From Escherichia phage PhiR30_1: a stretch of DNA of 47,390 nt. The stretch lies in sequence record PV340558. One strand, given 5' to 3'. Below, piece by piece: positions 39,041 through 42,440 of the stretch (positions are counted from its first letter, which is position 1; every line of letters begins with the position of its first letter). A program made the position numbers and the translations under genes. Below the pieces are notes generated by a model. That model did no database searches. It saw nothing but the letters and a program-made list of their open reading frames with translations, and had not been told where the DNA came from.

Positions 39041-42000
39041 GTGAATATGGCAGTAAAGATTTCAGGTGTACTGAAAGACGGCACAGGAAAACCGGTACAG
39101 AACTGCACAATCCAGCTGAAAGCAAAACGTAACAGCACCACGGTGGTGGTGAACACGCTGGCCTCAGAAAATCCGGATGAAGCCGGGCGTTACAGCATGG
39201 ACGTTGAGTACGGTCAGTACAGCGTTATTCTGTTGGTGGAAGGATTCCCGCCGTCACATGCCGGGACCATCACCGTGTATGAAGATTCCCGACCCGGTAC
39301 GCTGAATGATTTTCTCGGTGCCATGACGGAGGATGATGCCCGTCCGGAGGCACTGCGCCGTTTTGAACTGATGGTGGAAGAGGTGGCGCGTAACGCGTCC
39401 GCGGTGGCACAGAACACGGCAGCCGCGAAGAAGTCAGCCAGCGATGCCGGCACATCAGCCCGTGAGGCGGCAACCCATGCGACTGATGCTGCAGGCTCAG
39501 CACGTGCAGCCAGCACATCAGCCGGGCAGGCCGCGACGTCGGCTCAGTCAGCGTCTTCCAGCGCAGGAACGGCATCAACAAAGGCTACTGAAGCATCAAA
39601 AAGTGCTGCCGCTGCAGAGTCCTCAAAAAGCGCGGCGGCCACCAGTGCCGGTGCGGCGAAAACGTCAGAAACGAATGCTGCAGCGTCACAAAAATCTGCA
39701 GCCACTTCTGCATCCACCGCGACCACGAAAGCGTCAGAAGCTGCCACCTCAGCCCGGGATGCGGCGGCCTCAAAAGAGGCAGCGAAATCATCAGAAACGA
39801 ACGCATCATCAAGTGCCAGTAGTGCAGCTTCCTCGGCAACGGCGGCAGCAAATTCTGCGAAGGCGGCAAAAACGTCCGAGACGAACGCCAAGGCTTCTGA
39901 AACGGCAGCGGGACAGAGCGCCTCAGCTGCGGCAGGCTCAAAAACAGCGGCTGCATTATCTGCCAGTGCCGCGTCAACAAGTGCCGGGCAGGCCTCAGCC
40001 AGTGCCACCGCCGCCGGAAAATCGGCAGAAAGTGCTGCATCGTCTGCTTCAACAGCCACAACGAATGCTGGCGAAGCCGCTGTACAGGCCAGCGCAGCAG
40101 CGAGGTCAGCTTCCGCAGCGAAGACATCCGAGACGAACGCGAAAGCGTCGGAAACCAGCGCAGAATCCTCAAAAACGGCAGCGGCATCGTCCGCCAGTTC
40201 GGCGGCGTCATCGGCATCATCGGCGTCTGCTTCAAAAGATGAGGCGACCAGACAGGCGTCAGCAGCGAAGAGCAGCGCCACGACGGCATCCACGAAAGCA
40301 ACAGAGGCGGCAGGCAGTGCGACGGCGGCAGCACAGAGCAAAAGTACGGCGGAATCCGCGGCAACGCGCGCCGAGACAGCGGCAAAACGGGCAGAGGATA
40401 TTGCATCCGTCGTGGCGCTTGAGGATGCGAGCACGACGAAAAAGGGGTAGTACAGCTCAGCAGTGCGACCAACAGTACGTCTGAAACGCTGGCGGCAACG
40501 CCAAAGGCAGTAAAATCAGCCTATGACAATGCAGAGAAACGTCTGCAGAAAGACCAGAACGGCGCTGATATACCCGACAAGGACCGCTTCCTGAGTAACA
40601 TTAATGTTTACAGCAAAGGTGAAGTGGATCAGAAAAAGGGGATGCGATACGTTGTGGTAAATGCCCCGGCGGGTGTCCAGGAAGGTAAATATTATCCGTT
40701 AGTGATAAAAAGGAATGACAGCCATCGGGCATCCCGCGTTGTCATTTCAACGCCAAGTCGCTCAGCTAATCACAGAATGAATAATTGTGAGTTTAATGGT
40801 TTTGTTTGCGCAGGCGGCTGGACGGACCGGGGTAGCTATGCCTGTGGTATGTTCTGGGCTTATTCAACATCGGAACGCGCTATTCATTCCATTCTGATGA
40901 GTAATAAAGGCGATACCGTAGACAGCGTATTCTATATAGAAGGTGGGGCATTTCCCGTAGAGGTCTTTTTAGAAGAAGGTCTCTCCGTTACTGCACCTGC
41001 TTCTGATTATATTGTTGCTGAAACGACTTATAAATTTGGCGCAACTGATCCTTATTCTGAATCAGTTGCGGTAAATTTAATTTTAGATTTTAAACAAGGT
41101 AATGGATTTTATAGTTCATATCCTGTTTTGAGTAAGTCAGACATTAGCGGGAATAAGATTTACGCTAATGATGAAGTTATTGTCCGTAGTCAGAACGCGT
41201 TAAGGATGATTGCAGGTGATTACGGTGTCATATGGCGAAATGATGGAGCAAATACTTACTTGCTCATGACTGATAAAGGCGACCAGTACGGTGGCTGGAA
41301 CGGTCTTCGACCATTTGCAGTAAATAACGCAACAGGTGAAGTGACGATCAATACACCACTTAATTCTCCTAAGGGGATTAAGGGAAATTCTGATACAGCT
41401 ACGAAACTTCAGACAGCAATAAAAATATCTGGTGTTTCGTTTGATGGTTCTACTGATATCACTTTAACCGCTGCGCATGTTGCTGCTTTTGCCAGAAGAG
41501 CAACGGATACGTATGCCGATGCGGATGGGGGCGTTCCATGGAATGCCGAATCAGGCGCTTACAATGTCACCCGCTCTGGCGACAGCTATATTCTGGTTAA
41601 CTTCTATACCGGAGTCGGAAGTTGCCGGACCTTGCAGATGAAGGCACATTACAGAAATGGAGGTCTGTTCTACCGTTCCTCAAGAGATGGCTATGGTTTT
41701 GAGGAAGACTGGGCAGAAGTTTATACCTCGAAAAATCTTCCACCAGAAAGCTACCCAGTCGGCGCACCAATTCCGTGGCCATCAGATACCGTTCCGTCTG
41801 GTTATGCCCTGATGCAGGGGCAGGCTTTTGACAAATCTGCATACCCGAAACTTGCAGCGGCTTATCCGTCAGGCGTGATCCCTGATATGCGTGGCTGGAC
41901 GATTAAGGGCAAACCTGCCAGTGGTCGGGCCGTATTGTCTCAGGAACAGGACGGCATTAAATCGCATACCCACAGCGCCAGCGCATCCAGTACGGATTTG

Positions 42001-42440
42001 GGGACGAAAACCACATCGTCGTTTGATTACGGCACTAAATCCACGAATAACACCGGTGCGCATACCCATAGTTTAAGTGGCAGCACGAATGCGGCTGGTA
42101 ATCACAGCCATAGAGATGGCCGTCGATTTAACCCCAGTGTTTTTAAAGATACTTATCAATATGGTTATACAAGCTCAGGTCAAAATACCTGGGGGTACAA
42201 GGCTCAGTAGGTATGTCTACGGGGTGGTTAGCTAATACCAGTACAGATGGTAATCATAGCCACTCACTGTCCGGTACAGCAGTATCTGCAGGTGCACACG
42301 CGCATACTGTCGGTATTGGTGCTCATACGCACTCCGTTGCGATAGGGTCACATGGACACACCATCACCGTTAACGCTGCTGGTAACGCGGAAAACACCGT
42401 CAAAAACATCGCATTTAACTATATTGTGAGGCTTGCATAA
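39041..42440 (+). pseudogene. stf: Side tail fiber gene stf, split into three reading frames
   Basis: Segments 39041-40450 (469 aa), frame-1 open 40423-42210 ([24 protein letters not shown]...), and 42213-42440 (...[27 protein letters not shown]); each junction repairable by a 1-nt insertion. Confidence 0.7.

Follow-up and report, generated by a model that had tools for sequence, protein, structure and literature searches.

A side tail fiber gene split across three frames in a DLP12-site lambdoid prophage is probably a homopolymer sequencing artifact

The window, by which we mean the whole 47,390-nt stretch of DNA that was analyzed, is a complete lambdoid prophage lying beside tRNA-Arg (argU), based on the annotation of identical relatives. 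The same annotation places intD at the left end of the prophage and ompT at the right end, which is the DLP12 site. In the region considered here, the gene order is J - lom - stf - tfa, and the Caudo_TAP chaperone gene lies directly 3' of stf, as in other members of the side tail fiber family. ORF listing and translation reproduced the starting observation of the original prediction, namely that the stf coding sequence (39047-42440, + strand) is continuous in content but spread over three frames. The features are as follows:

34918-38316: J, upstream of stf
38383-38982: lom, between J and stf
39047-40450, + strand: stf segment 1, the N-terminal 467 aa, with the prophage tail fiber N-terminal domain and an Ala/Ser-rich shaft
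40439-40447, + strand: junction 1, A5 (40439-40443) followed by G4 (40444-40447); A5G5 in the four nearest relatives
40448-42210, + strand: stf segment 2, the central part, in a frame open from 40423 and ending ...TWGYKAQ*
42191-42195, + strand: junction 2, a G5 run; G6 in the four nearest relatives
42196-42440, + strand: stf segment 3, the conserved C terminus; the mechanical ORF begins at ATG 42213
42440-43024, + strand: tfa, tail fiber assembly chaperone, intact and overlapping the stf stop codon

Segment 1 may start at GTG 39041 or at ATG 39047, and the RefSeq relatives begin the CDS at the equivalent ATG. It ends ...STTKKG* at a TAG at 40450 that is produced by the frameshift. Segment 2 contains the conserved fiber motif, a Gp34_trimer-like domain, the collar domain, and the first HxH repeats. 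The extents first proposed for the three pieces (segment 1 to 40450, a second frame at 40423-42210 ending ...GYKAQ*, and a third at 42213-42440) were all recovered, and alignment with intact relatives showed that the placement of junction 1 in an A5G4 tract at about 40439-40447 was exact. The second junction had been put near 42205-42212, and here the same alignment disagreed: the lesion is really at 42191-42195, 10-20 nt upstream, and therefore the terminal YKAQ* of segment 2 is already out-of-frame read-through. The last five codons of segment 2 past the G run (TAC AAG GCT CAG TAG) are out of frame, and the true frame of segment 3 picks up directly past the run, ahead of ATG 42213. A Dcm motif, CCTGG, is present at 42188-42192, and the junction 2 run starts within it.

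We compared the 3.4-kb stf region with 5,426 complete Escherichia coli genomes by megablast and found at least 80% of it covered in 140 genomes. The seven best matches (H1-H7) had 99.9% identity over 3402-3403 bases, compared with 3400 bases in the query. Strains EH41, EH53, A12, and NCTC9113 carry stf as a single 3396-nt CDS encoding a 1131-aa protein, WP_073547448.1, which is annotated as “prophage tail fiber N-terminal domain-containing protein.” These four genomes have the same prophage as the window, at the same integration site (argU/intD ... ompT) and with the same neighbors, and their DNA is 100% identical to the stf of the window save for the two G's missing from the latter; unlike the window, they encode stf as a single ORF. 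Across the gene, pairwise alignments of the window with EH41 and A12 contained two 1-nt gaps and zero other differences. To judge from the sequence, the split of one continuous gene into three frames cannot be chance, because the three pieces align with 100% DNA identity to a single uninterrupted gene in four other genomes. Adding one G to each run yielded a 3396-nt ORF whose 1131-aa product, of about 118 kDa, is identical to the EH41 stf product by exact look-up, in agreement with the expectation that one inserted base per site would give a single ORF of roughly 1130 aa. A single intact ORF in the corrected sequence had also been named as the result that would speak against genuine inactivation, and this is what the in silico repair returned.

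The repaired protein clearly belongs to the lambda Stf/StfR side tail fiber family based on its domains, its C terminus, synteny, and the accompanying tfa. Residues 1-134 match the N-terminal domain PF08400 (E = 1.6e-71) and are followed by a long Ala/Ser-rich shaft. Further along, residues 655-758 match PF21446 (Gp34_trimer-like), residues 906-953 match PF07484 (collar domain), and there is a weak match to PF03335 (HxH fiber repeats). Compared with the reconstructed Ur-lambda Stf, identity is ∼59% over the N-terminal 526 residues and 72% between residues 902-1131 (the C-terminal 230) and Ur-lambda Stf residues 529-774; a lineage-specific insert of ∼375 aa separates these two alignable parts. 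The tfa product matches PF02413 (E = 1.6e-44) and in the relatives is annotated as WP_000885574.1, tail fiber assembly protein.

The full 47,390-nt window was then aligned with the four relatives, which differ from one another by recombination-like SNP clusters. Differences private to the window number only four over 47.4 kb: three 1-nt contractions of G/C runs, including the two in stf, and one SNP at 5514, between annotated CDSs. The additional contraction is the following:

17140-17144, + strand: third homopolymer contraction, C5 here and C6 in the four relatives, in the overlapping Rz (rzpD)/Rz1 (rzoD) spanin genes

This contraction truncates Rz1 and creates a fusion in which the N-terminal portion of Rz (rzpD) is followed by the C terminus of Rz1 (rzoD). 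According to a census of runs, the true (restored) sequence contains five G/C runs of at least 6 nt, two of which (2/5) are contracted here, and the remaining contraction, at junction 1, is in the compound A5G5 run. The private differences are indel dominated, the indels are confined to homopolymers, and three of the four are losses of one base in G/C runs, as would be expected of an artifact. The three contractions correspond to about 1 per 16 kb, a density that would give roughly 300 if it held across the genome. The C5 allele of Rz might be a true polymorphism, because about 1% of RefSeq complete genomes also carry it (about 40 of 4,437 matching records). In the protein collection, its fusion product is encoded by at least 24 contigs, many of them megabase sized and from diverse prophages. 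We inspected ten C5 contigs. Five have a neighborhood like that of the window and, by gapped alignment, are different prophages past the lysis cassette. In an ungapped comparison, exact identity of the remaining five to the window was limited to about 510-660 nt surrounding Rz.

Probes of ∼70 nt bearing the window alleles were compared with RefSeq complete E. coli. The junction 1 probe aligned at 4,441 places over 3,213 records, and the top matches were all 98.6% identical, corresponding to one gap; there was no full-length exact match to the window allele in the 3,202 records that matched over the full length. For junction 2, the G5 allele was the best match in 0 of 1,143 matching RefSeq records (1,445 places), with none at 99% or above. 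The intact alleles were readily found: G5 in the same 71-nt junction 1 context had exact matches in about 170 RefSeq records, and G6 at junction 2 had exact matches in 32. In IMG/VR, 158 copies of junction 1 comprised 142 with GGGGA and 16 with G5, 112 copies of junction 2 comprised 106 with GGGGTG and 6 with G6, and no copy at either site had the frameshift allele. Exact scans of GTDB representatives and JGI metagenomes also did not detect either frameshift allele. The products of segments 1 and 2, with any plausible start codon, were absent from about 15 billion proteins searched by exact look-up, whereas the intact 1131-aa protein occurs on 364 contigs in the same collection. The window sequence itself is absent from the RefSeq complete genomes, where the best matches still differ by the three indels. 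The two stf frameshift alleles of the window are singletons. Most stf genes have GGGGTG at junction 2, and the stf lineage of the window has the longest runs at both sites (G5 and G6, compared with the common GGGGA and GGGGTG).

The 75-aa ORF of segment 3 was found on 19 contigs, and the ten that we inspected are all from a different stf lineage. Full-length local alignment to EH41 was uninformative because stf is mosaic in its central domains; the shared C-terminal 690 nt were compared instead. Over these last 690 nt, the ten inspected contigs share 10 substitutions. Their junction 2 tract is G7 in five, G5 in one, and altered by a TGG-to-TGA change in two, and two of the ten have T-run deletions. 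One contig with the G7 allele was seen in at least 20 Logan samples, and the allele is also present in an ENA metagenome and an NCBI draft genome. We considered the 19 contigs as support for a real G5 allele and rejected this reading, given that the ten inspected represent the other lineage and are otherwise broken. Length and nonsense variants of the G6 tract at the stf C terminus thus occur in independent assemblies, which fits the known hypermutability of stf homonucleotide runs.

The lesions, their positions, and their uniqueness come directly from the alignments and searches above; from their pattern, we consider it likely that the three-frame split arose during sequencing or assembly. 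The real prophage would then have one intact 1131-aa side tail fiber gene, in which G5 would have been read as G4 at 40444-40447 and G6 as G5 at 42191-42195, and the same under-calling would have turned C6 into C5 at 17140-17144 (Rz/Rz1). Consensus sequences from nanopore, PacBio CLR, 454, and Ion Torrent data typically retain errors of this kind, in which homopolymers are called too short, especially G/C runs of at least 5 nt, adjacent runs such as A5G5, and runs beside Dcm sites. Errors in long-read assemblies are mainly homopolymer indels, with deletions linked to runs of 4-5 or more (PMC12007338), and nanopore consensus errors cluster in Dcm CCAGG/CCTGG (CCWGG) motifs and homopolymers (PMC6591954). 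Documented under-calls from long-read and flow chemistries (PMC12007338; PMC6591954) are, like the lesions in the window, losses of one base in runs of at least 4 that interrupt genes with no other difference from the copies in close relatives; the likeness is one of pattern alone, and the junction 2 lesion adjoins a Dcm CCTGG motif. We favor an artifact because the private changes are indel dominated, deletion only, and homopolymer only on an otherwise identical background. Even in E. coli lacking mismatch repair, mutation produced 6.02 base substitutions versus 0.85 indels per CDS, or ∼7:1 (PMC8510543), and the private differences of the window do not follow such a spectrum. The probability of at least three indels among four differences is ∼0.007 on the E. 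coli spectrum and ∼0.6 with the 69% indel share of one nanopore assembly (PMC12007338), although both values are crude and the window was picked for its frameshifts. Whether the gene was genuinely inactivated or misread had been left as an alternative by the original prediction, and the evidence clearly favors the error branch, short of proof.

The lesions could instead be real and due to recent replication slippage, with one G lost from each of two stf runs and one C from Rz/Rz1, possibly in a mismatch-repair mutator lineage or under selection for low adsorption; we regard this as rather unlikely, and it would predict fiberless, lambda-PaPa-like particles without functional spanins. Homopolymers are natural hot spots of replication slippage as well, and position alone does not discriminate between the two explanations. 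Real short-run frameshifts in stf are also documented, which counts against an artifact: in lambda PaPa, stf was lost when a C run became shorter by 1 nt (PMC12617516), and 15 of the 19 fiberless Ur-lambda-type mutants that Gallet, Shao, and Wang (2009) selected in structured media (soft agar) were short-run frameshifts, with a laboratory hot spot at a G5 run (lambda 21572, NNTGAH region) (PMC2762979). The junction 2 tract varies elsewhere, and separate assemblies containing another stf lineage show G7, G5, and nonsense (TGG-to-TGA) alleles. In addition, Rz C5 recurs in about 40 RefSeq complete genomes, and the runs in the stf lineage of the window (G5 and G6) are longer than the common alleles and therefore more prone to slippage. 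Two lesions in one gene would have a probability of ∼1.5% if three errors fell at random over the ∼41 G/C runs of at least 5 nt, a figure that speaks against an artifact but applies equally to slippage and is partly a selection effect of choosing the finding. However, three indels versus one SNP in 47 kb contradicts the E. coli spectrum, even that of mismatch-repair-deficient cells (PMC8510543). The first frameshift already kills stf, and the second would have had to arise neutrally before any substitution in the gene. Moreover, the plaque-diffusion selection that favors fiberless phage does not act on a resident prophage, and neither stf allele turned up in any other collection searched. It is far less probable still that the arrangement is functional, either through recoding or with G runs that turn the side fibers on and off by phase variation, and we give this almost no weight. 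As read from the sequence, the exact intact peptide would be restored if the A-site tRNA-Lys slipped by -1 on AAA-AAG (40439-40444, G-AAA-AAG), and AAG-type slippery sites are shifty in E. coli. Recoding would nevertheless also require a second slip, on GGG-GG at junction 2, and two low-efficiency slips would give a negligible yield; the frameshifted arrangement is found in no relative, the four nearest are in frame, and the IMG/VR alleles are all in frame. We rejected a programmed ribosomal frameshift, the arrangement having been found in 0 of 3,202 and 0 of 1,143 RefSeq records and in 0 of 158 and 0 of 112 IMG/VR copies. Phase variation would be in keeping with some tract-length variation at junction 2 in other lineages, but runs of 4-6 are far below known contingency tracts, which are usually 7-8 or more. 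A contingency locus was likewise rejected: the intact tracts are G5 and G6, the OFF alleles of the window are singletons, and G7, although present on several contigs, belongs to the other lineage. There is only a very slight chance that the lesions are real and arose because slippage repeatedly switches off the side fiber in this stf lineage, with the G runs as weak contingency tracts and the AAA-AAG slip giving a leaky full-length product. Regarding the contingency-tract reading, synonymous choices (GGG-GTA, TGG-GGG-GTA) create unusually long G runs, and G5, G6, and G7 all exist in nature.

Homopolymer under-calling remains our preferred explanation, and the prophage that seems fiberless and spanin defective here corresponds to a complete, apparently functional lambdoid phage in four near-identical genomes. 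It would probably be a mistake to call stf, Rz, and Rz1 pseudogenes or to draw conclusions on host range or inducibility from them. Real lesions would simply add one natural case to the stf losses known from lambda PaPa, a type of event that is already well understood. Under either explanation, the finding is of a familiar kind: an artifact is not a real feature, and real lesions of this sort are already known.

The lambda PaPa stf frameshift (orf-401/orf-314) is credited to Hendrix and Duda (1992), as cited in PMC12617516. PaPa is without one C in AAAGCCC(C)ACTGG, after Ur-Stf residue ∼395. The split in the window resembles that of PaPa in affecting the same gene family at the same position (after J and lom, before tfa) and in involving the loss of one base from a homopolymer. 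In PaPa, however, there is one lesion, experimentally verified and heritable, whereas the window has two singleton lesions that are probably artifacts. The analogy to PaPa that had been drawn for this gene thus stands in kind but not in position, and we rejected the idea that the mutations share a site, as PaPa is mutated 29 codons downstream of the homologue of junction 1. Were the lesions real, the expected phenotype would be that of PaPa, a fiberless but viable phage. The mutants of Gallet et al. (PMC2762979) differ from the window in that they arose under explicit selection in lytic growth and have one lesion each, and their hot-spot run is not the same as either stf run of the window. Junction 2 lies in a W-G-V-Q segment that is present in the window gene but not in lambda Stf.

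The G tract near the 3' end of stf (the side tail fiber gene), homologous to window positions 42188-42196, differs among independent assemblies of an stf lineage other than that of the window. Among ten inspected contigs sharing the 75-aa segment 3 open reading frame (L008-L017), the tract is G7 in five and G5 in one, and a further pattern, a nonsense change from TGG to TGA within the tract, occurs in two. The sources of the G7 contigs include one found in at least 20 Logan samples, one ENA metagenome contig, and one NCBI assembly (GCA_021634005.1). Recurrence of both length and nonsense variants across independent assemblies suggests that the tract is a real mutational hot spot or that this fiber type has been lost repeatedly.

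Another homopolymer difference lies within the overlapping spanin genes of the window, which are arranged as follows.

16794-17195, Rz (rzpD)
17014-17163, Rz1 (rzoD), embedded in Rz
17140-17144, C run

The run is C5 in the window versus C6 in all four nearest relatives (prophages in the complete E. coli genomes EH41, EH53, A12, and NCTC9113). Through the resulting frameshift, the first ∼118 aa of Rz are followed by the C-terminal residues encoded in the Rz1 frame, and Rz1 itself is cut short. An identical 133-aa Rz-Rz1 fusion product is encoded on at least 24 contigs from different prophages, and the C5 allele was present in ∼40 of 4,437 RefSeq records. The shortened run reflects either a sequencing error that recurs at C6 or a recurrent, real polymorphism that inactivates the spanin. 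Across 47.4 kb, the only base substitution private to the window relative to the four relatives is at position 5514 (A, versus C in all four), between the EH41-annotated coding sequences at 4886-5092 and 5577-6509.

Within the Ala/Ser-rich shaft of stf, both strands are open in several frames, with open reading frames of 295 to 346 aa.

39444-40484, + strand, open frame in the stf shaft
39544-40434, - strand, open frame in the stf shaft
39585-40472, - strand, open frame in the stf shaft

These frames are comparable to the annotated orf206b opposite orf-401 in lambda and are most simply explained as a by-product of biased GCN/TCN codon composition rather than as additional genes.

Two features lie between the tail fiber assembly gene, tfa, and the chromosome.

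43079-43747, - strand, class I SAM-dependent methyltransferase
43804-44109, second tail fiber assembly gene, 101-aa remnant (C-terminal half of PF02413, E = 9e-18)

The remnant is annotated in the relatives as a partial pseudogene. In strain 13KWH46, whose stf locus is 97.9% identical, a pinR recombinase replaces the content at 43079-44109, hinting that this interval is a decayed or exchanged boundary of the tail-fiber module.

The window carries a lambdoid prophage that is full-length and appears complete.

1-43100, lambdoid prophage, attachment at tRNA-Arg/intD ... ompT

The same site in E. coli K-12 is occupied by DLP12, which shares the gene names intD, quuD, essD, rrrD, rzpD, bor, ybcV, and nohD with the window prophage. 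DLP12 is a defective remnant. The window prophage has head and tail genes and thereby amounts to an intact DLP12 relative.
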